DNA from: a virus
Taxonomy: Duplodnaviria > Heunggongvirae > Uroviricota > Caudoviricetes
Reading direction: 5' to 3' (one strand)
Length of the DNA stretch: 12,469 bases
IMG/VR virus record: IMGVR_UViG_2663763280_000001
In this document: one piece after another, positions 1 to 12,469 of the stretch
Layout of the letters: each line of letters starts with the position of its first letter
Numbering within the stretch: position 1 is the stretch's first letter
Position numbers and translations under genes: made by a program
Notes under the pieces: model-generated
Database searches by the model: none
Seen by the model: the letters and a program-made list of their open reading frames with translations, nothing else
Told to the model about the DNA's origin: nothing

Positions 1-103
1 AGGTCTGATGGTGTTTGGTGTGGTGGATTTCCATGGTCTGCTTATCGAAGTGCGGTTCCAGGGCATCGTAAGCATACGGCAGGGATGGCAGGGTATAGCT
101 CAT
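1..103 (-). CDS. sodA: Mn superoxide dismutase, N-terminal 34 codons (partial; continues beyond window start)
   Basis: Minus-strand ATG at 103..101 preceded by GGAG at 113..110. Translation [34 protein letters not shown] matches the SodA N-terminus as I remember it, including the His-rich Fe/Mn-SOD motif. Confidence 0.85.
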
Positions 104-217
104 ATTCATCTCCAGTATTGTCGGGCGGCCGATTGTTAATGCCGCGTAAGCAGTTGGTTCATTATAGTTAATTAAATGATATTGAAAATGATTATCAATG
201 CCGTACTTTTCGTAAGG
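104..217 (-). promoter_or_regulatory. sodA 5' region: SD GGAG (113..110), -10 TATAAT (166..161), Fur-box-like AT-rich dyad (about 175..196)
   Basis: Minus strand reads ...GATAATCATTTTCAATATCATTTAATTAACTATAATGAACC...GGAGATGAATATG. The TATAAT and the GATAAT-rich dyad are seen directly; assigning them to the sodA promoter and Fur site is from memory. Confidence 0.6.
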
Positions 218-913
218 CACCTGCTGGCTGCCGAACTGTTCCGAGTCCACCTGCACGCCGACCAGTGCCGTGTTCGGGTAGCACTGTTTCACATCGATGA
301 TTTCGGTGTATGACGACCAGAGCGTTTTGTTCTGCAGCTGGTCTGTGGTGCTGTCCGGCGTCATTCTGCGCATCCGGATATTAAACGGGCGCGGCGGCAG
401 GTTATCCACCAACACCGAGGCCAGATACTGCGAGGTGGTTTTGCCCTTAATGGTGATGTCTTTTTCCGTCACCCAGCCACCATTACGCTGTATCTGAACC
501 AGCAGGCGAACTTCCGACGGATTCCAGTCCCCCTTTGAGGTGGTTTCCACCAGTGCCTGCACACCGAAGGTAAAGCGCAGTCGGTCGATGTTTGCCGACG
601 TGATGGCGCGGGTGATCGGCGTGTCGTATTTCACTTCCGTACCCAACACCGTCTCGGAGCCGGAGGATTCAAATCCCTCCGGCGGAGTCTGCTCCTGCTC
701 ACCAGCCCGGAACACCACCGTGACACCGGCGATGTTGGTATTCCCATCACTGTCCAGCACCGACGTACTGTTCAGCAGCACGCTTTTTAATCCATCCACC
801 GGACCTTCAATCGGCCCTTCACTGATGGCATCAATCACACTCAGCAACTGCGTGGACTTCAGGTTGTCCTTCGCTTCGCGCGGGGTATGCCCCTTACTGC
901 TTCCTTTACCCAT
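218..913 (-). pseudogene. J: Tail tip / central fibre protein J, N-terminal 232 codons only (lambda J is about 1132 aa)
   Basis: ATG at 913..911 with AGGA upstream. Translation [49 protein letters not shown]...QFGSQQV follows the lambda J N-terminus, then changes abruptly to sodA upstream sequence after codon 232. Confidence 0.85.
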
Positions 914-935
914 TCCTCACGCTCCATAAACGACA

Positions 936-955
936 AAACCGCCCGCAGGCGGTTT
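936..955 (-). terminator. Perfect 8-bp stem / 4-nt loop hairpin in the I-J intergenic spacer (AAACCGCC-xxxx-GGCGGTTT), U-rich 3' side on the minus strand
   Basis: Inverted repeat seen directly between the I stop (976..974) and the J start (913). Function not established. Confidence 0.3.
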
Positions 956-973
956 CACATAAAACATTTTGCA

Positions 974-1645
974 TCAGCGACCAATCACCACAACCTGACC
1001 ACCGTCCCCTTCGTCTGCCGTGCTGATCTCCTGAGAAACCACGCGTGACCCCACGCGCATTTCCCCGTACAGAACAGGCAGAACATTGCCCTGGGCAACC
1101 ATGTTATCCAGTGAGGAGAAATAGGTGTTCTGCTTACCGTTATCCGTTGTCTGTGTACGGGGAGTTCTGGCTTTCGGTGCCAGCATCTGCGCCACACCAC
1201 CGAGCACCATACTGGCACCGAGAGAAAACAGGATGCCGGTCATACCACCGGCCCCAATGGCTGCCCCCCATGCTGCAAGGGTGGCTCCGGCGGTAAAGAA
1301 TGATCCGGCAATGGCGGCAGCCCCCAGGACAATCTGGAATACGCCACCTGACTTGGCCCCGGCGACTCTGGGAACAATATGAATCACAGCGCCATCAGGC
1401 AGAGTCTCATGTAACTGCGCCGTTAACCCGGACGTGCTGACGTCCCGCCCGGCAATCCGTACCTGATACCAGCCGTCGCTCAGTTTCTGACGAAACGCCG
1501 GGAGCTGTGTGGCCAGTGCCCGGATGGCTTCAGCCCCCGTTTTCACACGAAGGTCGATGCGGCGACCAAATCGTTGTAAATCCCCGTAAAGGCAGATGCG
1601 CGCCATGCCCGGTGACGCCAGAGGGAGTGTGTGCGTCGCTGCCAT
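974..1645 (-). CDS. I: Tail tip assembly protein I (223 aa)
   Basis: ATG at 1645..1643, stop at 976..974; 223 aa as in lambda I; overlaps the K 3' end by 103 nt as in lambda. Confidence 0.92.
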   Translation of the reverse strand: MAATHTLPLASPGMARICLYGDLQRFGRRIDLRVKTGAEAIRALATQLPAFRQKLSDGWYQVRIAGRDVSTSGLTAQLHETLPDGAVIHIVPRVAGAKSGGVFQIVLGAAAIAGSFFTAGATLAAWGAAIGAGGMTGILFSLGASMVLGGVAQMLAPKARTPRTQTTDNGKQNTYFSSLDNMVAQGNVLPVLYGEMRVGSRVVSQEISTADEGDGGQVVVIGR

Positions 1646-2286
1646 TTGTCGGTGTACCTCTCTCGTTTGCTCAGTTGTTCAGGAATATGGTGCAGCAGCT
1701 CGCCGTCGCCGCAGTAAATTGCGGCGTGATTCGGCACCGATGAACCAAAACAGCACAGCAGCACATCGCCCGGCTGTGCCGCTGACAACGGCACCTGATA
1801 CAGCCCTGTGGCCTCCAGATTATCCAGATAGAGATTCTGGCCGTTACGCCACCAGTCATCCTCACGATGAAAGGCCGGCATCTCAATCCCCGCCAGATGA
1901 TAAGCATCCCGGAACAGTGTGTAACAGTCCGTCACACCGTGCTCAAAGCGCCGCCCGGTGAGATGCGGCACACAGCGGAACTTATGAATCGTCCCCCGGC
2001 AGACCAGCCACCACGGCAAATCACTCTGCACCTGCAGCCGCCGGTCGGCCTCACTCAGCCAGGGCAGACCACCGGGGTGGCTGTGGACCAGCGCCACAAT
2101 CTCACCCTGCATTTCTGCCTGCAGCCAGTCTTCCGGCGACATACGGAAATACGCCTCCGGCTCACCGGAGATATTCACGCAGGGGAAATATCTTTCCCCC
2201 TCCGGCGTGCTTACCACGAAGCCGCACGACTCCGCTGGCGCACATCGCCGGGCGTGCGCCAGAATCGCTGATTCTGTCTGTGTCAT
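1543..2286 (-). CDS. K: Tail tip assembly protein K, JAMM/MPN plus NlpC/P60-type. Open frame is 247 aa from the ATG at 2286; the canonical 199-aa lambda start corresponds to the ATG at 2142
   Basis: Frame is open from the ATG at 2286 (5 nt after the L stop) to the stop at 1545..1543. An internal ATG at 2142 has GGAGG 11 nt upstream. JAMM motif HSHPGGLPWLSEAD is seen directly. Confidence 0.85.
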   Translation of the reverse strand: MTQTESAILAHARRCAPAESCGFVVSTPEGERYFPCVNISGEPEAYFRMSPEDWLQAEMQGEIVALVHSHPGGLPWLSEADRRLQVQSDLPWWLVCRGTIHKFRCVPHLTGRRFEHGVTDCYTLFRDAYHLAGIEMPAFHREDDWWRNGQNLYLDNLEATGLYQVPLSAAQPGDVLLCCFGSSVPNHAAIYCGDGELLHHIPEQLSKRERYTDKWQRRTHSLWRHRAWRASAFTGIYNDLVAASTFV

Positions 2287-2291
2287 GGGAT

Positions 2292-2990
2292 TTACTGCGA
2301 AAGTTTGTTAATGGAAAGGAAGCCGCCAAAGTTGCCGACGTTATTGCGGAACTTACAACCGCTCAGGCATTTGCTGCATTTATCCTTCGTGATATCGGAC
2401 GTTGGCTGGTCATATTCATCCGCGACAGCCGGACCGCTATAACCGCACTCGTCACCGCGATAGGTCCAGGTGCAGGTGTTGGCCAGCATGATACGTCCCG
2501 GAAAAACAGCGCCATCCGTTTCCGTCGGCGTGGACAGTACAAAGGAGGCACTCACCGCGCTCAGTTCGCTGCACTGCTCAATGCGCCAGCGGCTGATCAC
2601 CTCCTGCTCCGGATCGGCGCCACTGTTTCCGTTGACGAAGTTCACCGCATCCAGAAAACGGGCGTAAACCTTACGCCGGACCACCGTTCCACCGACCAGA
2701 CTCTGCAGATCTTCCGCCATCCCGGTGACCATACCGTACAGGTTAGAAACCGTCAGTGTGGGGCGCGTACTGGTGCCTTTGCCATTCAGTTCAAAACCAC
2801 TCCCCTGAATGGGATACGGCTGATACTGTCGCCCCTGCCAGGTGACCGGCTCACCTTTTTCGTTCTGCTCATTACAGAAAAAATAACGTTCTCCACCGAC
2901 CTCTGTCAGGTCGATTTCCCAGAGCACCACGCTGGCCGACTGCTCCGCACGGGTGCATTCATTCAGTGTTTCCTGCCGGATATCCTGCAT
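2292..2990 (-). CDS. L: Minor tail protein L (232 aa)
   Basis: ATG at 2990..2988 overlaps the M stop (ATGA); stop TAA at 2294..2292; length and sequence as lambda L. Confidence 0.92.
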   Translation of the reverse strand: MQDIRQETLNECTRAEQSASVVLWEIDLTEVGGERYFFCNEQNEKGEPVTWQGRQYQPYPIQGSGFELNGKGTSTRPTLTVSNLYGMVTGMAEDLQSLVGGTVVRRKVYARFLDAVNFVNGNSGADPEQEVISRWRIEQCSELSAVSASFVLSTPTETDGAVFPGRIMLANTCTWTYRGDECGYSGPAVADEYDQPTSDITKDKCSKCLSGCKFRNNVGNFGGFLSINKLSQ

Positions 2991-3319
2991 CAGTTCACCA
3001 CCTGTTCAAACTCTGCGCTGAACTCAACACGCAGCATACTGACCCGCGACGACCATTTTGCGCAGGTCACCTTTATCTGCCGCCACTCATAAGGCGGCGT
3101 CCACAGAAAGGCTTTCCAGCCCCCGTGCTCTTCCAGAAACGACTCCAGTACCGTGGCCTCCTCACGGGGGACAGAAAGCGTCACGCTGTACGTTTTCAGG
3201 TTGGCATTCAGCCCGGCAGGCGCTCGCTGGGAATAGCCATCACCAAAGCGCACCTTTCTTACAGAAGGGGCCGAAGCCACATCCATACCGGGTTTCACTT
3301 TCCAGCGGAAGGTTTTCAT
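2990..3319 (-). CDS. M: Minor tail protein M (109 aa)
   Basis: ATG at 3319..3317 overlaps the H stop; 109 aa as lambda M. Confidence 0.92.
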   Translation of the reverse strand: MKTFRWKVKPGMDVASAPSVRKVRFGDGYSQRAPAGLNANLKTYSVTLSVPREEATVLESFLEEHGGWKAFLWTPPYEWRQIKVTCAKWSSRVSMLRVEFSAEFEQVVN

Positions 3320-5895
3320 CGTCCACCTCCGGAGAACAGACCACCATCGCGCATCTGTGCCTGGATTTCATCACGGGCACCCTTGCGGGCCATGTCATAC
3401 ACCGCCTTCATCATCTGTGGACCTGGCAGACCATTCGTACCGTCGTTCTGAATCACCACGTGATTGTTCTGATTAAAATTAATGCCTTCAGCCCGCCGCA
3501 TCTGCGCCGGACTTCCGGCACCGCCCACATAACCACCTTCCGCATAGCCCCGCATCAGGCGGTACAGGTTGCCGACACCAATCCGGCTGGTTGCCTCCTT
3601 CGTGAAGACAAATTCACCACGGTGAACAATCCCCGCTGGCTCATATTTGCCGCCGGTTCCCGTAAATCCCCCGGTCGCAAAATGGAATTTCGCCGCAGCG
3701 GCCTGAATGGCTGTACCGCCTGACGCGGATGCGCCGCCACCAACAGCCCCGCCAATGGCGCTGCCGATACTCCCGACAATCCCCACCATTGCCTGCTTAA
3801 GCAGAATTTCTGTCATCATGGACAGCACGGAGCGGGTGAAGCTGCGCCAGTTCTGTTCACTGCCGGTCAGCATCGCCGCCATATTCTGCGCAATACCATC
3901 AAAGGTCTGCGTGGCTGCACTTTTAACCTGCGACATACTGTCCGTGGCACTCTCTTTCCACTCGCTCCAGCCGGACCTGAGGCCTGCCATCCAGTTCCCG
4001 CGAAGCAGGTCTTCAGCCGCCCAGGTCTTTTTCTGCTCTGACATGACGTTATTCAGCGCCAGAGGATTATCGCCATACTGTTCCTTCAGGCGCTGTTCCG
4101 TGGCTTCCCGTTCTGCCTGCCGGTCAGTCAGCCCCCGGCTTTTCGCATCAATAGCGGCCCGTTTTGCCCGTTGCTGCTGTGCGAATTTATCCGCCTGCTG
4201 CGCCAGCGCGTTCAGGCGCTCCTGATACGTAACCTTGTCGCCAAGTGCAGCCAGCTGGCGTTTGTACTCCAGCGTCTCATCTTTATGCGCCAGCAGGGAT
4301 TTCTCCTGTGCAGACAGCTGGCGACGTTGCGCCGCCTCCTCCAGTACCGCGAACTGACTCTCCGCCTTCCACAAATCCCGGCGCTGCTGGCTGATTTTCT
4401 CATTTGCTCCGGCATGCTTCTCCAGCGTCCGGAGTTCTGCCTGAAGCGTCAGCAGGGCAGCATGAGCACTGTCTTCCTGACGATCGCCCGCAGACACCTT
4501 CACGCCGGACTGTTTCGGCTTTTTCAGCGTCGCTTCATAGTCCTTTTTCGCCGCCGCCATCAGCGTGTTGTAATCTGCCTGCAGAATTTTCCCGTCCTTC
4601 AGTGACTTGTTCAGTTCTTCCTGACGGGCGGTATATTTCTCCAGCGGCGTCTGCAGGCGTTCGTAAGCCTTCTGCGCCTCTTCGGTATATTTCAGCCGTG
4701 ATGCCTCAGACTCGGCCCAGTCCTTTGCTGCCATCTCTCTGGCCTTTTCAAGATCGGCCTGCAACGTGGCGGCTGAAAGCCCAAGTTGCGCATTCGCTCT
4801 CTTCTCCCATGCTCCCCGGAGATTGGCAAGAAATGCTGAGGTTTTACCGCGCCGGTGGCTCCGGCTCTGATACCACTGCCATTTTTTGTCCGCCTCATCA
4901 AAAGCCTTTTCTGCTTTCTCCAGCATTCCCTGGGCAGTGTCCGGGCGACCAATATCCAGCACCGAATCCCACATGGATTTGAATGCCCGTGCTGTCCTGT
5001 CTGCCCAGGTCTCCAGCGTGCCCATGTTCTCTTTCAGGCGGCGGGTCTGGTCATCAAACCCTTTCGTTGCGGCCTCGTTCGCCGCCTGCAATGCCCCGGC
5101 TTCATCTCCGGAACGCTGCAACTGAGCAACATACGCAATCTGCTCCGCCGTCACGTTATGGAACTGACGTGCCATCGCTGTCAGTCCCGACGTCGGGTCT
5201 GTGGTCAGCTTCCCGAAGGCTTCAGCGACCTTGTCCACCTCCACGCCGGATGCAGAGGAGAAACGCGCCACACTCTGGCTGATCGCCTCAAACTGCTCAC
5301 CACCACGCACACCGGCATTCACCAGCGCCGTCAGTGACTCGCTGGTCTGGTTAAACGTCAGCCCTGCCGCCTGCCCGGCTCTGGACAGGACCAGCATACG
5401 ATCTGCCGTCAGTCCCGCCTGATTGCCGGAAAGGACCAGCGTTTTGTTGAAATCGGACAGGGTTGAGTTGCCCTGATACCAGGCATACGCCAGCGCACCG
5501 GTCGCCACCGCCAGCGAGGTGGCCCCCACCATCGGCAGGGTGATCGCACCGGCAAGCCCCCTGAACATGGGGATCATCCCGCCGAAGGAGTCCTTAACCT
5601 GACCACCCTGTTGCAGCAGGATCAGCCACGGGCTTTGCCCGCCTGCAAGCTGCGTGGCCACGTCGGTGAACTGTGCAGGCAGCATACGCATGGCGGCTTT
5701 ATACTGCCCGACGGAAATCCCCGCTTTCTGTGCAGCCAGCGCCTGTCGGCTCAGCGACTGTTCAACGACTGCCGCTGTTTTTTTCGCATCAGTTTCCGTA
5801 CCGGAAAAATGACGCCTGACTCTGGCCATCTGCTCGTCAAATCTGGCCGCATCCAGACTTAAATCAACGACCAGATCGCCTACCGGTTCAGCCAT
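3316..5895 (-). CDS. H: Tail tape measure protein H (859 aa here)
   Basis: ATG at 5895..5893 overlaps the T stop by 8 nt as in lambda. Long, coiled-coil-rich ORF with a Gly-rich C-terminal region, starting MAEPVGDLVVDLSLDAARFDEQ. Confidence 0.92.
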   Translation of the reverse strand: MAEPVGDLVVDLSLDAARFDEQMARVRRHFSGTETDAKKTAAVVEQSLSRQALAAQKAGISVGQYKAAMRMLPAQFTDVATQLAGGQSPWLILLQQGGQVKDSFGGMIPMFRGLAGAITLPMVGATSLAVATGALAYAWYQGNSTLSDFNKTLVLSGNQAGLTADRMLVLSRAGQAAGLTFNQTSESLTALVNAGVRGGEQFEAISQSVARFSSASGVEVDKVAEAFGKLTTDPTSGLTAMARQFHNVTAEQIAYVAQLQRSGDEAGALQAANEAATKGFDDQTRRLKENMGTLETWADRTARAFKSMWDSVLDIGRPDTAQGMLEKAEKAFDEADKKWQWYQSRSHRRGKTSAFLANLRGAWEKRANAQLGLSAATLQADLEKAREMAAKDWAESEASRLKYTEEAQKAYERLQTPLEKYTARQEELNKSLKDGKILQADYNTLMAAAKKDYEATLKKPKQSGVKVSAGDRQEDSAHAALLTLQAELRTLEKHAGANEKISQQRRDLWKAESQFAVLEEAAQRRQLSAQEKSLLAHKDETLEYKRQLAALGDKVTYQERLNALAQQADKFAQQQRAKRAAIDAKSRGLTDRQAEREATEQRLKEQYGDNPLALNNVMSEQKKTWAAEDLLRGNWMAGLRSGWSEWKESATDSMSQVKSAATQTFDGIAQNMAAMLTGSEQNWRSFTRSVLSMMTEILLKQAMVGIVGSIGSAIGGAVGGGASASGGTAIQAAAAKFHFATGGFTGTGGKYEPAGIVHRGEFVFTKEATSRIGVGNLYRLMRGYAEGGYVGGAGSPAQMRRAEGINFNQNNHVVIQNDGTNGLPGPQMMKAVYDMARKGARDEIQAQMRDGGLFSGGGR

Positions 5896-6322
5896 ACCGG
5901 ACTCCTCCTGCGATCCCTTCTGATACTGTCATCAGCATTACGTCATCCTCCGTCATGTCCGCCACATCCGGGGAAGCGGGGATAACTTCATTCCCGTCCG
6001 GGCCAAAACGAACGCCTCCGGCAAGCCCTGCCGCTTTCTGCATCAGCACATCATCTTCAGGCTCTTCGTCAGCCTCGCGCCGGTTCAGCAGACTGAAATC
6101 CAGCGGATGCATCTCCGGATCGCTGAAAAACAGGCTGAGCACGGTGTACGTCAGCCCGGAAAAGTGCATATCCAGCAGAACATCATGAAAATAATGGGTA
6201 CTGTAAAAGCGGTGCCAGTCGGCATACTCCGTGGATGACATCCCGGCAAGCATGGCGCGCCAGTCGGGTCGCCCCATCTCACGCGCCAGTTTCAGGGCAA
6301 AACTCAGCTCACCGTCGAACAC
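5888..6322 (-). CDS. T: T segment of the G-T tail assembly chaperone, expressed only as a G-T fusion by -1 frameshift (no independent start)
   Basis: Open frame in the -1 frame relative to G, beginning at the slippery site and ending at TGA 5890..5888; product ...FDGELSFALKLAREMGRPDW... as lambda gpT. Confidence 0.85.
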   Translation of the reverse strand: MFDGELSFALKLAREMGRPDWRAMLAGMSSTEYADWHRFYSTHYFHDVLLDMHFSGLTYTVLSLFFSDPEMHPLDFSLLNRREADEEPEDDVLMQKAAGLAGGVRFGPDGNEVIPASPDVADMTEDDVMLMTVSEGIAGGVRYG

Positions 6323-6726
6323 TTTCCCGCAGAAACAGGCTCTGCAGGCCCGGCGTCCTCTGCCTGTTCAGGAGCATCATTCACCACAAACTCATACATA
6401 CCGGACAGCCGGTACACCACGTTTTCAGCATGAGAAATTGCCTCTGTGGGCCAGGTGGTAAGCACTTCCTGCTCAATCTGTTTAACGGCTTCATTCATGG
6501 AAGGCAGCTTTGTCTTCTTCGGATGGTTATGCCACAGGGACATCGCCACCAGAAACGCGCCGGTTCTGATGGCGTCTTCCACAGTAAACTTCCGGTTGCT
6601 GTCTGACTCCGCCTGTTCTGCCTGCCGTTTCATCAGGGCGAGATGCTCAATACGCTGCAGGGCTGACAGTTCAGAAAGCGTGACGGTCACACCGTTATGT
6701 TCAAATGATTCGGTTTTCAGGAACAT
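6304..6726 (-). CDS. G: Tail assembly chaperone G (140 aa)
   Basis: ATG at 6726..6724, stop TGA at 6306..6304; C-terminus ...PAEPVSAGKCSTVS as lambda gpG. Confidence 0.92.
   Translation of the reverse strand: MFLKTESFEHNGVTVTLSELSALQRIEHLALMKRQAEQAESDSNRKFTVEDAIRTGAFLVAMSLWHNHPKKTKLPSMNEAVKQIEQEVLTTWPTEAISHAENVVYRLSGMYEFVVNDAPEQAEDAGPAEPVSAGKCSTVS
6322..6328 (-). promoter_or_regulatory. Programmed -1 ribosomal frameshift slippery heptamer G GGA AAG joining G to T
   Basis: Minus-strand GGGAAAG at 6328..6322 sits at the Gly-Lys codons 6 codons before the G stop; the -1 frame continues into the T reading frame. Confidence 0.8.
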
Positions 6727-6741
6727 CGCTGACTCTCCGGA

Positions 6742-7482
6742 TTAACTGGCGGTGACGTTGATTTCTGCAACCGCAGCAAACTCACCATTACCGGATACGA
6801 CCGGAATGTTGACCTTGCCTGCAGCAACACCTTTCACGGTGATGGTCATACCACTGACCGACACGGTGGCTTTTGTTTTATCCGCAGACACCGCACGGAA
6901 GCTCTTGTCGGTTGCGCCATCCGGCTGGAATGCCACGGTCAGCGTGGTGCTCTGCCCTTTCACTACGGAAGCACTGGCGGGTGTCACCGTCATGCCGGTT
7001 GTCGCCGTCACCGTGCTGCGATCTTCTGCCATCGACGGACGTCCCACATTGGTGACCTTCACCGTGCGGGTAATCACTTCCTTCGCCGTCACCGCCTTAC
7101 CGATACTGCTGACCCAGCCACGGAACACATCGACCGTGCCGTTCGGGAAGCGGATTTTATAGGCACGGGTATCGCCTTCATTAAACCACGCCAGCAGCGC
7201 CTGCTGCCCCTGCTCTCCGGGCATCCACGCCAGCGTGAAGCTGGTATCTCCAGCAGATTTCTGCCCCTGCCCGGTCGCAGTCCAGTCTGCATCTTCATCA
7301 TCGAGATAGCTGTCGTCATAAGACTCAGCGGTCAGTTCGCCGGGCGTCAGGTCTTTAACTTTTGCCAGACGCGACCAGTCAACGTCTGAAAGCGGATTCG
7401 CATAAGGGTCACCACTCCCCTTATAAACCCACAGGGTGGTCCCGGCCCCTTTCACCGGCATTACAGGATTTGGTACAGGCAT
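6742..7482 (-). CDS. V: Major tail tube protein V (246 aa) with C-terminal Ig-like domain
   Basis: ATG at 7482..7480 with GAGGA upstream; starts MPVPNP...; C-terminal about 90 aa rich in T/V/S, consistent with an Ig-like fold. Confidence 0.92.
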
Positions 7483-7489
7483 AGCGTCC

Positions 7490-7885
7490 TCACATTTCAT
7501 AGGTAATGACATAAGTCAGATCGGCTGAACTCCACAGGCCCGCATCATCGTCGCGCCGATAGTCATAGCCGCTGGTCACCATACTGGTGATCAAATCTGA
7601 CAGTGCCGGGATATCACTCATCACCGGATAAATCCGGGACTCCATCCACGCATCCAGCTCTGAATCCGGCACCTGAGCAGGCAGGAAAACTTCAATATGC
7701 AGCTCCGCCTGCCAGGTATCGCTGTCCAGCTCTTCGCCCGTGTATTCAGCGCCGGTGAGATAAACGGCAATTGCCGGAAAATCTTCCTCATCAAAAACAG
7801 CGGGGCGACCATCAAAAAGCGTCGCCCCGGTGTCATGCTTCTCCAGTGCATCCAGTACGGCTGCTCGGAGTTCAGTATGTTTCAT
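7490..7885 (-). CDS. U: Tail tube terminator protein U (131 aa)
   Basis: ATG at 7885..7883 overlaps the Z stop (ATGA); 131 aa as lambda U. Confidence 0.92.
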
Positions 7886-8460
7886 CGCTTTATTACCATC
7901 CTCAGTTGATGCTGCAGCGCATAGCCCAGCTCTTTCGGAAGACGCTCACGCCGTATCCGCTCAATATTCTGTTTAAACGCCGTGGTCAGCGGCACCGCCA
8001 TCGGGATTTTCACCACATCAATGGGGTAACGATTTTTCCCGGCCACACGCTGCATGACATGCCAGCGGCCATTTTTCAGTTGCTGAATAAACGCGCCGGG
8101 AATACGACGGTTTCCCACCACAAGCACGCTGCCGCCACCTTTCAGGGCTGAACGCTGCCCCTTTTTACGACGCCTGCGTCGGGACAGGACAATCCGCGCG
8201 TTACCCAGCTTTATTACGGGCAAATCCCCCCGGTTAACCTTGATTCTGGCCTGCGGATTTTTGACCGTGGCCCTTTTCAGCCTGGCCCTTTCCTTTACCA
8301 GTTTCCGGCGTACCTTTGTCTCACGGGCAACCTGTGACGCCGACTGCGATATCGCGGATGAAGCAACGCGGTTAATGGCCATTGCGGCGGCACCGGGCAC
8401 CGCCGTTCTGCTGATACGGCTGAGGTTTTCAACGGCCTGCTCAAGACCTTTTATGGCCAT
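7882..8460 (-). CDS. Z: Tail completion protein Z (192 aa)
   Basis: ATG at 8460..8458; 192 aa; basic Arg/Lys-rich middle region as lambda Z. Confidence 0.92.
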   Translation of the reverse strand: MAIKGLEQAVENLSRISRTAVPGAAAMAINRVASSAISQSASQVARETKVRRKLVKERARLKRATVKNPQARIKVNRGDLPVIKLGNARIVLSRRRRRKKGQRSALKGGGSVLVVGNRRIPGAFIQQLKNGRWHVMQRVAGKNRYPIDVVKIPMAVPLTTAFKQNIERIRRERLPKELGYALQHQLRMVIKR

Positions 8461-8471
8461 ACATCCCCCTT

Positions 8472-8825
8472 TCAGCGGCGACGGTTAACGGCAGGCGGTA
8501 CGCCCCGCCCAAGCCAGAGATGACAGCTTCCGCCATCATCTGGCGAAATCCGGTCTATCCAGAAGTTTTCCTCACCGATGGTCAGCGTGTCGCCGCGCCG
8601 CAGCTGCCGCACATCATCAGTCCGGACAAACAGGGACGGGCTGGAGCCTTCAACGCGCACGCCCTGTCCGGCATAGCTGATATTTTCAGGGTCATCAAAA
8701 ACACCACGTATCACAGCACCGGACTGCTCACCGGATGTCATGGTGGCTGACGTTCCCATGTACCCGCGTATCGTTTCATCGGCGCGGGCAATGGCAGCAT
8801 CGAACAGGTTATCGAAATCAGCCAC
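8472..8825 (-). CDS. FII: Head-tail joining protein FII (117 aa)
   Basis: Start codon here is GTG (8825..8823) with GGGAGG 5 nt upstream; product MADFDNLFDAAIARADETIRGY... as lambda FII. Confidence 0.9.
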   Translation of the reverse strand: MADFDNLFDAAIARADETIRGYMGTSATMTSGEQSGAVIRGVFDDPENISYAGQGVRVEGSSPSLFVRTDDVRQLRRGDTLTIGEENFWIDRISPDDGGSCHLWLGRGVPPAVNRRR

Positions 8826-8836
8826 AGCGCCTCCCG

Positions 8837-9232
8837 TTATTGCATTCTGGCCAGGCCGCGCTCTGTCATTTCAGCTGCCACACCGGCAGAGACACGGAAC
8901 GCCGTTCCCGGCAGCACAAATGCCACAGGCTCATCCCGCGTGGCGTGAAGTGCATCAGTATGCAGCGTCACCAGTGCCACGACCGTGACCAGAGCAGCCG
9001 TATCAATCACGGTATCCGGCTGCGCTGATACCACCTCATTTTCATGTCCGGTCAGCGCATTTTCCGGGCTGACAGATGTGTCCTGACCGGCAGCGTCATC
9101 CGTGTCATCAAGCTCCTCTTCCAGCTCTGCCACACGGAGCACCAGTTCTTCTTTCGTCCCCGTCAGGCTGACATCACGGTTCAGTTGCTCACCCAGCACC
9201 TGAAGACGGGCAATCAGTTCATCTTTCGTCAT
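8837..9232 (-). CDS. FI: DNA-packaging / head completion protein FI (131 aa here)
   Basis: ATG at 9232..9230 preceded by GGAGGAG; product MTKDELIARL... ending ...EMTERGLARMQ. Confidence 0.9.
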   Translation of the reverse strand: MTKDELIARLQVLGEQLNRDVSLTGTKEELVLRVAELEEELDDTDDAAGQDTSVSPENALTGHENEVVSAQPDTVIDTAALVTVVALVTLHTDALHATRDEPVAFVLPGTAFRVSAGVAAEMTERGLARMQ

Positions 9233-9253
9233 GGACTCCTCCACAGAGAGAAA

Positions 9254-9271
9254 ATGGCCCCGAAGGGCCAT
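9254..9271 (-). terminator. Terminator-like hairpin between E and FI: 7-bp stem ATGGCCC/GGGCCAT with UUCG tetraloop, followed by UUUCUCUCU
   Basis: Minus strand reads TAA-TC-ATGGCCC-TTCG-GGGCCAT-TTTCTCTCTG-TGGAGGAG-TCC-ATG; seen directly in the 41-nt spacer. Confidence 0.4.
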
Positions 9272-9273
9272 GA

Positions 9274-10299
9274 TTACGCCAGTTGTACGGACACGAACGC
9301 ATCAGGGTCAGCCAGCAGCATCAGCGGTGCTGACTGAATCATGGTGAACTCACGCGCCGGATCGCCGGTGGTCACCCAGTTTTTCGGGTAGCGGGCAGAG
9401 GCGTTAATACCTTCGCGCTGTGCGTCCGCATCCTGAATGCAGCCATAGGTGCGCAGACCGCGTGCCTGAGTGTTCCCCAGCACCATCGTGTTGTCCGGCA
9501 GGAAGTTCTTTTTGACGTCGTTTTCCACGTACTGTCCGGAATACACGACGATCGCCGTATCGCCATACATCCCCTTATAGGACACCGCTTCGCCCAGGTC
9601 TTTTACCGCTGTCTCCAGCTCGGAATTAGAGCCGCGACGGGTATCCAGCTTCTCCTTGACGGCTTTGAAGGAACGGAACAGCGCCCAGCCTTTCGGATCA
9701 AACACGATGATATTCACCACACCGCTGGCGTTCAGCGCGTAGGCTTCGATATCGTCGGTCGGGTCATACGTGGACTTGTCACGCTTGCTCCACTCCGTAC
9801 CGCCGGACTGTGTGATGTTGTTCGCCGCACTGCGGCCCATATCCACCTCAACCGGATCGAAGGCTTCACCGGTCATGGTGTATTTGCCCTTAAGCACAGC
9901 AGAAACTGCCTGCATCTCTTCGACCTGAGCAATGGCCAGCTCTTCGTCTCGCATGTTCTGCATGATGATGCGACGGCGGCGGTAAGCCGGGTCCGCCAGA
10001 TTCTGCGGATCTTCATCCGGCAGGCGACGCAGGGTCATCTGCGGATTCACCTCATGCTTGGGTTTGACATATCCCGGCGTAAATTCAGAGGTGGAGCCGC
10101 CACGGGAACGGATAACCTCACCGGAAACAATCGGCGAAACGTACAGCGCCATGTTTACCAGTCCCGGAATTTGTGAGAGATAGACTTTCTCCGTGGTGAA
10201 GGGATAGCTCTCACGGAAAAAGAGACGCAGAAACAGCGGATCAAACTTAAATTTCTGCTCATTTGCCGCCAGCAGCTGGGCGGTTGTGTACATCGACAT
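9274..10299 (-). CDS. E: Major capsid protein E (341 aa)
   Basis: ATG at 10299..10297 (MSMYTTAQLLAANEQKFKFDP...), stop TAA at 9276..9274; 341 aa as lambda gpE. Confidence 0.93.
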   Translation of the reverse strand: MSMYTTAQLLAANEQKFKFDPLFLRLFFRESYPFTTEKVYLSQIPGLVNMALYVSPIVSGEVIRSRGGSTSEFTPGYVKPKHEVNPQMTLRRLPDEDPQNLADPAYRRRRIIMQNMRDEELAIAQVEEMQAVSAVLKGKYTMTGEAFDPVEVDMGRSAANNITQSGGTEWSKRDKSTYDPTDDIEAYALNASGVVNIIVFDPKGWALFRSFKAVKEKLDTRRGSNSELETAVKDLGEAVSYKGMYGDTAIVVYSGQYVENDVKKNFLPDNTMVLGNTQARGLRTYGCIQDADAQREGINASARYPKNWVTTGDPAREFTMIQSAPLMLLADPDAFVSVQLA

Positions 10300-10312
10300 A
10301 AAAAAATCCCGT

Positions 10313-10337
10313 AAAAAAAGCCGCACAGGCGGCCTTT
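10313..10337 (-). terminator. Intrinsic-terminator-like element between D and E: GC hairpin (GCCGC-CTGT-GCGGC) followed by T7
   Basis: Minus strand reads ...AAAGGCCGCCTGTGCGGCTTTTTTTACGGGATTTTTTTATATG(E); stem-loop plus U-tract seen directly. Confidence 0.4.
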
Positions 10338-10354
10338 AGTGATGAAGGGTAAGG

Positions 10355-10687
10355 TTAAACGATGCTGATTGCCGTTCCGGCAAACGCGGTCCGTTTTTTC
10401 GTCTCGTCGCTGGCAGCCTCCGGCCAGAGCACATCCTCATAACGGAACGTGCCGGACTTGTAGAACGTCAGCGTGGTGCTGGTCTGGTCAGCATCAACCG
10501 CCAGAATGCCAACGGCAGTACCGTCGGTGGTGCCATCCCACGCAACCAGCTTACGGGTGGAGGTGTCCAGCATCAGCGGGGTCATTGCAGGCGCTTTCGC
10601 ACTCAATCCGCCGGGCGCGGTTGCCGTATGTGCCGGGTCACTGTTGCCCAGCGGCTGGTAATGGGTAAAGGTTTCTTTGCTCGTCAT
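10355..10687 (-). CDS. D: Capsid decoration protein D (110 aa)
   Basis: ATG at 10687..10685 ([27 protein letters not shown]...), stop TAA at 10357..10355. Confidence 0.93.
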
Positions 10688-10696
10688 AAACATCCC

Positions 10697-11302
10697 TTAC
10701 ACTGGTGTGTTCAGCAAATCGTTAACGGCATCAGATGCCGGGTTACCTGCAGCCAGTGGTGCCGGTGCCCCCTGCATCAGACGATCCAGCGCAGTGTCAC
10801 TGCGCGCCTGTGCACTCTGTGGTGCAGCTGCCAGAATGCGGCGGGCCGTTTCCACGGTCATACCGGGGGTTTCGGCCAGCACACGTGCCTGTTCTTCGCG
10901 TCCGTGAGCTTCCTCACAGTTGAGGATCCCCATAATGCGGCTGTTTTCTGCCGCAACCGCAGCGGTGATCTGCGCGTTCACGTCCGGCTGCGCCGCGCTG
11001 GCGTTTTCGCCCTCCGTCGCTTGCACCACGTCAGTAACGTCAGCCTGCGAAGCAGTGGCTGAAACAGTTGTTGATTGAGTCTCTTTGGTCATTCGCCCTC
11101 CTGAGAGACGGGATTTACGTGCATCCAGTGCATCACGCATAACGGTGATCGCATCGGTGCTGTTGACAAGTTCATCAGCCAGTCCGGCATCAATGGCCTC
11201 CTGACCGCTGTACATTGCAGCCTCGGTATCCAGCACAGCCTGCACGGACAGGCCGGTATATGCCGACACCTTCTGCGCAAACATCCGGCGGGTTGCATCC
11301 AT
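10697..11302 (-). CDS. Nu3: Capsid scaffolding protein Nu3, in-frame internal start within C (C codon 239), co-terminal with C
   Basis: Internal ATG at 11302..11300 (MDATRRMFAQKV...) in the C frame, giving 201 aa; the nested arrangement is known for lambda. Confidence 0.75.
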   Translation of the reverse strand: MDATRRMFAQKVSAYTGLSVQAVLDTEAAMYSGQEAIDAGLADELVNSTDAITVMRDALDARKSRLSGGRMTKETQSTTVSATASQADVTDVVQATEGENASAAQPDVNAQITAAVAAENSRIMGILNCEEAHGREEQARVLAETPGMTVETARRILAAAPQSAQARSDTALDRLMQGAPAPLAAGNPASDAVNDLLNTPV

Positions 11303-12016
11303 CCGGGACTGCAGTGTCTCCCGGACATCACCCGGTAGATGGCTGTAGGGGTTGCCATCCACCTTATGGCTGCCGCTGTAAATCAGCGTGATTTCCACGC
11401 CCTGTTTCTCCAGCGCAGCGCCGTAATTACTGTGAGCCATCATGACGCCGATGGAGCCTGTCCGGGCGGTCTGCGTGACCAGACGCCGGGAGGCGGCGCT
11501 GGCAAGCAGCTGACCTGCACTGCAGTTCATGTCGTTGGCCAGCGCCCATACCGGCTTTATGTCACGCACACGGGCGATGATGTCAGCACAGTCAAATGCT
11601 CCCGCCACCATCCCGCCCGGTGTGTCCATATCGAGCAGAATGCCGTCCACCATCGGATCGCTGGCAGCCTGTTGCAGACGAGCGATAATGCCGTTGTAAC
11701 CGGTCATTCCCGAATACGGCTGCAGCGCCCGCGTCCGGCTGACCAGCGTACCGGACACCGGCAGCACGGCGATGCCGTTCATGACCTGATAACTGCGGGC
11801 CTGTCGTGGTCCGTCATCATCACCGGATAACGCCAGCGCCGCGGGTGCCTCTCCGGCAGTCAGGCTATCGCCGGATACTGCATCCGTCAGGCGACTGATC
11901 CCAAGCTGGCCTGCAAGCGCACAAAAGAAAACCCGCGCATAGGCGGGTTCAAGCATCAGCGGCTCATTAAAAGCCATGCTGGCAATATGCGGGAGATTAC
12001 GCAGCTCTGCTGTCAC
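10697..12016 (-). CDS. C: Capsid assembly protease / minor capsid protein C, S49 (SppA-like) family (439 aa)
   Basis: GTG start at 12016..12014 with GGAGGAG upstream, overlapping the end of B by 20 nt as in lambda; product MTAELRNLPHIASMAFNEPLMLEP... Confidence 0.9.
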   Translation of the reverse strand: MTAELRNLPHIASMAFNEPLMLEPAYARVFFCALAGQLGISRLTDAVSGDSLTAGEAPAALALSGDDDGPRQARSYQVMNGIAVLPVSGTLVSRTRALQPYSGMTGYNGIIARLQQAASDPMVDGILLDMDTPGGMVAGAFDCADIIARVRDIKPVWALANDMNCSAGQLLASAASRRLVTQTARTGSIGVMMAHSNYGAALEKQGVEITLIYSGSHKVDGNPYSHLPGDVRETLQSRMDATRRMFAQKVSAYTGLSVQAVLDTEAAMYSGQEAIDAGLADELVNSTDAITVMRDALDARKSRLSGGRMTKETQSTTVSATASQADVTDVVQATEGENASAAQPDVNAQITAAVAAENSRIMGILNCEEAHGREEQARVLAETPGMTVETARRILAAAPQSAQARSDTALDRLMQGAPAPLAAGNPASDAVNDLLNTPV

Positions 12017-12209
12017 TCTTCTCCTCCTCTGTTGATTGTCGCAGTCCGGATTCAAATGCCGCAGCCGCCCAGGCGGGCGGTTTAAGACCGGCTGCACGGC
12101 GCTCCATCGTTTCACGGACCTGCTGGGCAAAAATTTCCTGATAGTCGTCACCGCGTTTCGCGCACTCTTTCTCGTAGGTGCTCAGTCCGGCTTCTATCAG
12201 CATCACAGC
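11997..12209 (-). pseudogene. B: Portal protein B, C-terminal ~71 codons only; 5' part of the gene replaced by unrelated DNA
   Basis: ...AVMLIEAGLSTYEKECAKRGDDYQEIFAQQVRETMERRAAGLKPPAWAAAAFESGLRQSTEEEKSDSRAA-stop matches the lambda portal C-terminus as I remember it. Upstream the frame loses resemblance and hits an in-frame TGA (12395..12393). Confidence 0.8.
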
Positions 12210-12469
12210 AACAAAGTCACGCTTAAAACACAGGAGCATCTCGATCGCTGCCTCACTTGCCGCAATTGTGAAACCACCTGTCCTTCTGGTGTGCGCTATC
12301 ACAATTTGCTGGATATCGGGCGTGATATTGTCGAGCAGAAAGTGAAACGCCCACTGCCGGAGCGAATGCTGCGCGAAGGATTGCCAGATCTTTCAGGGTC
12401 GCCAGCGCGCCATGTTCTGCCATCTGCCGTTATCTCCTGGGTTATGACACTGTCGGGAAAATACGCTCC
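12210..12469 (+). pseudogene. glcF: Internal fragment of a GlcF-like (glycolate oxidase Fe-S subunit family) gene; no start in view, runs off the window end
   Basis: Plus-strand frame reads NKVTLKTQEHLDRCLTCRNCETTCPSGVRYHNLLDIGRDIVEQKVKRPLPERMLREG..., with a canonical 4Fe-4S C-x2-C-x2-C-x3-C-P motif at 12249..12284. Assignment to glcF is from memory, not a search. Confidence 0.55.

Follow-up and report, generated by a model that had tools for sequence, protein, structure and literature searches.

Lambdoid prophages of the Qin-locus type, such as those of Escherichia coli JNEC-KY180 and N1286, carry a full-length J gene (3,480 nt) that is followed by lom and a side tail fibre gene, while the portal gene at the other end of the head-tail block is complete and is preceded by the terminase genes. 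Direct joins between phage and host DNA are produced by aberrant excision. In specialised transducing phages of the lambda gal/bio type, such a join is accompanied by the loss of phage genes, the host DNA should neighbour the attachment site, and one novel joint is expected. Homology-independent joining of distant sequences is also described for the RecBCD/LigA-dependent alternative end-joining (A-EJ) of E. coli in the model of Chayot et al.; a preprint that summarises this model (bioRxiv 10.1101/605246) gives 1–3 nt of microhomology as typical, assigns joints to A-EJ by a microhomology of 1–9 nt, and describes as products either one deletion or one join at a break that had been induced. On the technical side, it is recognised that library preparation can yield chimeric reads, through recombination or concatemerisation, and that these lead to wrong contig structure (PMC5961307).

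We analysed a stretch of 12,469 nt (the window), which is the entire contig CCCB01000120.1 of the draft assembly GCA_000945835.1. The window is a mosaic of four loci, namely sodA, a lambdoid prophage, glcF and fliJ/fliI, which are connected on the one contig by three non-homologous joints at 217/218 (junction A), 12206/12208 (junction B) and 12382–12384 (junction C). In a search with the whole window, phage homology ends at 218 and also at about 12206. The last 263 bases are non-phage DNA, comprising a 177-bp piece of glcF and 88 nt of fliJ/fliI. All three joints therefore lie close to a contig end (at most 217 nt on the left and at most 263 nt on the right), and the lengths of the two foreign tips, 217 nt and 263 nt, are compatible with reads of at least 300 nt. 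The first-pass annotation had singled out junction A, and did not link it to junctions B and C at the far end of the window; that the window is a complete small contig was information it did not have. Taking the three joints together, we conclude that junction A is very probably a contig-end chimera, an artefact of assembly or library preparation, and not a structure of the bacterial chromosome.

The contig begins within sodA. The minus-strand ATG at 103 opens the N-terminus of SodA (Mn superoxide dismutase), and the first 34 codons (2–103, minus strand) have 100% identity to annotated sodA. The next 114 nt (104–217, minus strand) are the native sodA upstream leader and promoter region, without a single mismatch to the corresponding locus of the K-12-derived strain ER1709. 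Thus, the sodA start codon, the nature of the sequence at 104–217 and a break about 115 bp upstream of the gene (114 nt by alignment) had all been read correctly in the first-pass annotation, as had the presence of a –10 element: a sigma-70-like site is located inside the kept leader, with its –35 at 188–183 and its –10 at 166–161 on the minus strand. The sodA portion of the window (1–217; the 34 codons plus the 114 upstream nucleotides) is 100% identical in many E. coli. It is matched in 5,425 of the 5,426 complete E. coli genomes, with one copy in each, and sodA is thus strictly single copy.

On the other side of junction A, the minus-strand ORF starting at ATG 913 is the N-terminus of the lambdoid tail-tip/host-specificity protein J and can be followed through ...SEQFGSQQV. 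This truncated gene (J', 218–913, minus strand) comprises codons 1–232 and has 99.7% identity to annotated gpJ. The same identity is found for window 218–1000 with the annotated gpJ and tail assembly protein genes of many prophages. Codon 232 is at 218–220, exactly where J had been proposed to stop. Base-by-base alignment, in register with both parents, places the switch point between 217 and 218 with 0 nt shared and 0 nt inserted, making junction A blunt. The native sodA upstream region runs ...CGTAAGG|GTATGG toward rhaT, and the window follows it through G217. Intact J reads ...ACGGCT|CACCTGC, and the window is J from C218, the preceding base in intact J being T. The sequence beyond the join is native sodA upstream DNA and not a continuation of J, in agreement with the earlier proposal.

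We found no IS end, terminal inverted repeat or target-site duplication at 217/218, where the parental alignments explain every base. Direct or inverted repeats, repeat families and an att core repeat are likewise absent from junction A, and no tRNA gene exists anywhere in the window. The observation in the first-pass annotation that the join has no IS end, att core, tRNA or obvious repeat is therefore upheld. A rearrangement mediated by an IS or transposon was rejected because all bases beside 217/218 are parental and repeat families are absent at the joint. An attL or attR prophage boundary was rejected as well, because the joint is inside J, at codon 232, and has neither a tRNA nor a core repeat. 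A third candidate was a natural mosaic boundary of lambdoid phages at codon 232. In 4,386 genomes, however, J continues without a break and the alignments pass straight through the codon, and this candidate was also rejected.

J', the leader and sodA form one open frame on the minus strand (2–913), consisting of J' codons 1–232, 38 leader codons and sodA, and a gene caller would predict a J'-SodA fusion from it. The native sodA leader is already open in this frame for 51 codons, and an in-frame join of J' and sodA is accordingly an event with a chance of about 1/3.

The phage DNA between the foreign tips is unremarkable in its organization. An intact tail and head block with the genes I, K, L, M, H, T, G, V, U, Z, FII, FI, E, D and C is located at 974–12016 on the minus strand, where the ORFs are called genes with Pfam matches; among them, H encodes the tape measure protein, E the major capsid protein and C an S49 peptidase. 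The block is followed by the 3′ end of a lambda B-like portal gene (11997–12206, minus strand), which is cut at 12206. Window 218–12206 (11,989 bp) is collinear with the prophage of JNEC-KY180 and differs from it by only 4 mismatches (412, 526, 1040 and 7252). The JNEC-KY180 prophage adjoins nohA-ynfO-ydfO-gnsB-ynfN, which we take to be genes of the K-12 Qin prophage region. The near-identity and the order of the genes between J and the portal gene are shared with the Qin-locus-type prophages of JNEC-KY180 and N1286, and the window differs from them in its truncated J without lom and the side tail fibre gene, and in its truncated portal gene without the preceding terminase genes. A GGGAAAG heptamer is present at 6322–6328 on the minus strand, at the overlap of the G-like (6304–6726) and T-like (5888–6322) tail chaperone ORFs, where lambda has the –1 frameshift site of G/GT. 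With 2 matches in the window, the heptamer does not exceed its chance expectation, and the position is its sole support. In another deposited sequence, ‘Escherichia phage 500465-3’ (CP025902.1; 13,549 bp, unannotated), we found a 99.1% match to window 218–1000. This entry, too, may represent a piece of prophage on a contig that was submitted under the name of a phage.

One of the origins suggested earlier for junction A was an engineered or transducing-phage-like construct. An engineered lambda-based construct, such as a fusion phage, a cloning vector or a library clone with sodA on it, might seem attractive since a lambda-type J adjoins a promoter that has been much studied and its reading frame continues into sodA. 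However, the phage DNA has only 96.6% identity to lambda, DE3 and lambda-derived records in this part, as against 99.7–100% to natural prophages, so the arms are not those of lambda or a lambda vector. No vector, marker, linker or restriction-site sequence is found at any of the joints, and junction A has no match in the plasmid or phage collections. We therefore consider a construct highly improbable. A restriction-ligation signature, as from a Hi-C or Sau3AI library, was also rejected, because none of the joints has a GATC or another such site. One AGATCT at 12387–12392, 4 nt away from a joint, is the single GATC or AGATCT in the vicinity, and it is native fli sequence.

The right-hand tip has a more complicated structure than the left-hand one. 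At junction B (12206–12208), the portal gene meets glcF. The portal sequence is collinear with the portal CDS of a reference prophage locus (L002, CDS 17780–19381) up to locus position 17989. As the gene is unbroken at the 12206 cut point in 3,221 genomes, with alignments running through it, a natural lambdoid mosaic boundary was rejected here too. The glcF piece (12208–12384, plus strand, sense) is a 177-bp internal fragment of this glycolate oxidase subunit gene. It corresponds to positions 1501–1677 of a reference glcF locus (L003), within the CDS at 1320–2543, and its match to annotated glcF is at best 99.4% identical. An orphan A at 12207 matches neither parent, and a G>A change at 12213 is absent from all glcF matches listed; these two off-template bases cluster at junction B, where the microhomology is at most 2 nt in addition to the orphan base. 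At junction C (12382–12384), glcF meets fliJ, and TGC (3 nt) is common to both parents. The remaining sequence to the contig end (12382–12469, minus strand) has 100% identity to its parent and consists of the first 14 codons of fliJ (ATG at 12423), the fliI-fliJ spacer and the last codons of fliI. The fliJ/fliI segment has a median of 1 copy per genome. A 56-aa ORF crosses junction C (12253–12423, minus strand), running from the fliJ ATG into antisense glcF. Although it is called as a gene, this ORF forms a singleton cluster in a set of about 15 billion proteins, and an exact look-up placed it on CCCB01000120.1 (12,469 bp) and on no other contig.

We also investigated where the joined loci are located in complete genomes. 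sodA, glcF and fliJ/fliI lie 0.6–1.3 Mb apart. In strain 120899, for example, the loci are at 2.09, 3.11 and 4.35 Mb, all on the plus strand, and in strain E2865 they are at 4.66, 4.02 and 2.67 Mb. The three pieces in the window keep the relative order and orientation that they have in most complete E. coli chromosomes, for which the chance is about 1/8. E2865 and E2863 depart from this usual order and orientation, presumably because of an inversion. A reference-ordered concatenation of tiny contigs was tried as a candidate and judged a poor fit: the three chromosomal pieces agree with it, and the phage block, if it belongs to the Qin locus as placed on the K-12 map, would have the wrong place and orientation.

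These positions bear on the simplest biological reading, a deletion from within J of a prophage that resided beside sodA, through aberrant excision or a specialised transducing event. Phage DNA does run directly into host DNA without an IS element or att site, and phage genes are missing, as in the lambda gal/bio type. However, sodA is natively located between rhaT and kdgT with no prophage, the nearly identical JNEC-KY180 prophage is at a Qin-type locus and not by rhaT and sodA, and in strain 504838 a distance of about 2.5 Mb separates sodA from the best J match. Nor is the far end of the phage block intact: it breaks off in the portal gene and is followed by glcF and then fliJ, a structure that a single deletion cannot yield. 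Where the lambda gal/bio type would have one joint to DNA neighbouring the attachment site, the window has host pieces from three distant loci and a phage block cut at both ends in structural genes. A deletion of this kind is thus very unlikely. The claim that the prophage has lost about 80% of J and everything distal to it is not supported as biology, given the two further joints on the same contig and the lack of any of the joints elsewhere. Among the three origins offered for junction A in the first-pass annotation, it is the chimeric assembly that we favour; a simple deletion is implausible, and an engineered or transducing construct found no support.

We searched for the joints in several collections. 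At a coverage of at least 80%, window 1–1000 has no place in the 5,426 complete E. coli genomes, in 50,697 phage records or in 72,556 plasmid records. An exact 36-nt string across junction A gave 0 matches in IMG/VR, the GTDB species representatives and the JGI metagenome contigs. By exact look-up, neither the reconstructed 476-aa J'-SodA fusion nor its 304-aa contig-truncated form is in the protein collection. The 80-aa and 101-aa ORFs across junction B also gave no exact match there; the 80-aa gene is called on the contig, and its absence is a gap of the index that carries no evidential weight. Among the collections searched, the sequences joined here are adjacent in no independent assembly of the species.

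The most serious alternative to a chimeric contig is a real, complex chromosomal rearrangement in the isolate, in which illegitimate recombination or alternative end-joining sealed several double-strand breaks in the absence of homology. In the product, the head-tail block would have the sodA promoter on one side and, on the other, a 177-bp glcF filler followed by fliJ, with J and the portal gene truncated and a J'-SodA open frame created. Several features are consistent with such an event: the joints share 0–3 nt, with a possible microhomology of 2–3 nt at two of them; the frame from J' (1–232) through the 38 leader codons into sodA is unbroken; the three chromosomal pieces are in their usual order and orientation; and the sodA core promoter is kept. 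Likeness to A-EJ, as the preprint describes it (bioRxiv 10.1101/605246), extends to the homology-independent joining of distant sequences and to the two of three joints with 2–3 nt of possible microhomology (at most 2 nt at junction B and 3 nt at junction C). Junction A, with 0 nt, has none of the microhomology that A-EJ reportedly needs in that source and falls below its range of 1–9 nt. Moreover, each product described there has one deletion or one join at an induced break, whereas the window has three joints among four loci at megabase distances. That three joints between loci 0.6–1.3 Mb or more apart should all lie within 263 nt of the ends of one small contig would be a coincidence, and the clustering of joints at contig ends has no biological explanation. 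A true contig would also stop in single-copy DNA for no reason, and the joints were found in none of the other collections searched. If the order of the pieces had been kept by deletions alone, megabases including essential genes would presumably have been removed. On balance, a rearrangement is unlikely. Still less probable is its full version, in which the contig is correct throughout: a chromothripsis-like multi-break rearrangement with a captured 177-bp glcF filler, a phage late-operon fragment directly upstream of sodA, an in-frame fusion of J' (232 aa), 38 aa and SodA, and disrupted glcF and fliI/fliJ.

A chimeric origin of both contig tips accounts for these features more readily. At both ends, the contig stops inside single-copy genes shortly after the joints. 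Since sodA is single copy, there is no repeat-related reason for a true contig to stop 217 nt into it. The phage block is different in this respect. A genome carries a median of 3 copies of the J segment, and the I protein of the window (223 aa) occurs twice, in identical form, in one genome. In most of the collection blocks carrying this I protein, the longest contig is shorter than 2 kb. Given a multi-copy J, a recurrent I protein and such short contigs, assemblies are expected to break in the prophage block, and a break there leaves the contig ends open to extension by a stray chimeric read. As a separate observation on the duplicated I protein, the two prophages of CP003034.1 (loci L010 and L011) share an identical 223-aa I protein, and both have an IS3-family insertion at the same place in the FI/FII region; this pair looks like a duplicated prophage.

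The proposed sequence of events for a chimeric contig is as follows. The real object would be an ordinary lambdoid prophage head-tail block, window 218–12206. The assembler would have been unable to extend this block, because a typical E. coli genome contains J and its neighbours several times over in nearly identical form. Each contig end would then have been lengthened by a chimeric library molecule or read, in which distant chromosomal fragments had been ligated or template-switched during library preparation. Alternatively, the fragments may have been wrongly added at a contig-extension or gap-filling step. The left addition would be the 217 nt of sodA, and the right addition the 263 nt made up of the 177-bp glcF piece and the 88 nt of fliJ/fliI. 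Two joints around a 177-bp fragment, together with clustered off-template bases, are what would be expected from concatenated fragments at single-read depth. We infer that the joints lack read support at normal depth, and that intact sodA, glcF, fliIJ and J are present on other contigs of the same assembly.

The window resembles known chimeric contig ends in that unrelated single-copy loci are joined with 0–3 nt of overlap in one assembly only, and in that one tip has two joints and off-template bases, all joints lying within what may be about one read length of the ends. Such ends are marked at read level by low spanning depth and discordant pairs; the assignment here is based on structure and on absence elsewhere. 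Two features run mildly counter to a purely random chimera, the collinearity of the chromosomal pieces (about 1/8) and the in-frame join of J' and sodA (about 1/3), and we regard both as mild coincidences.

Nothing in the analysis favours real joints over an artefact, and the feature at junction A most likely does not reflect real biology. Joints that proved real would represent homology-independent joining of multiple fragments in a natural E. coli isolate, and would be of interest to DNA-repair specialists. If they are an artefact, this contig illustrates neatly how prophage truncation, promoter capture and gene fusion can be mimicked by the chimeric tips of short draft contigs. Such tips would also introduce spurious singleton proteins into databases, examples being the 56-aa ORF of fliJ' and antisense glcF and a J'-SodA fusion. 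In scans for novel junctions, breakpoints within a read length of a contig end deserve lower weight.
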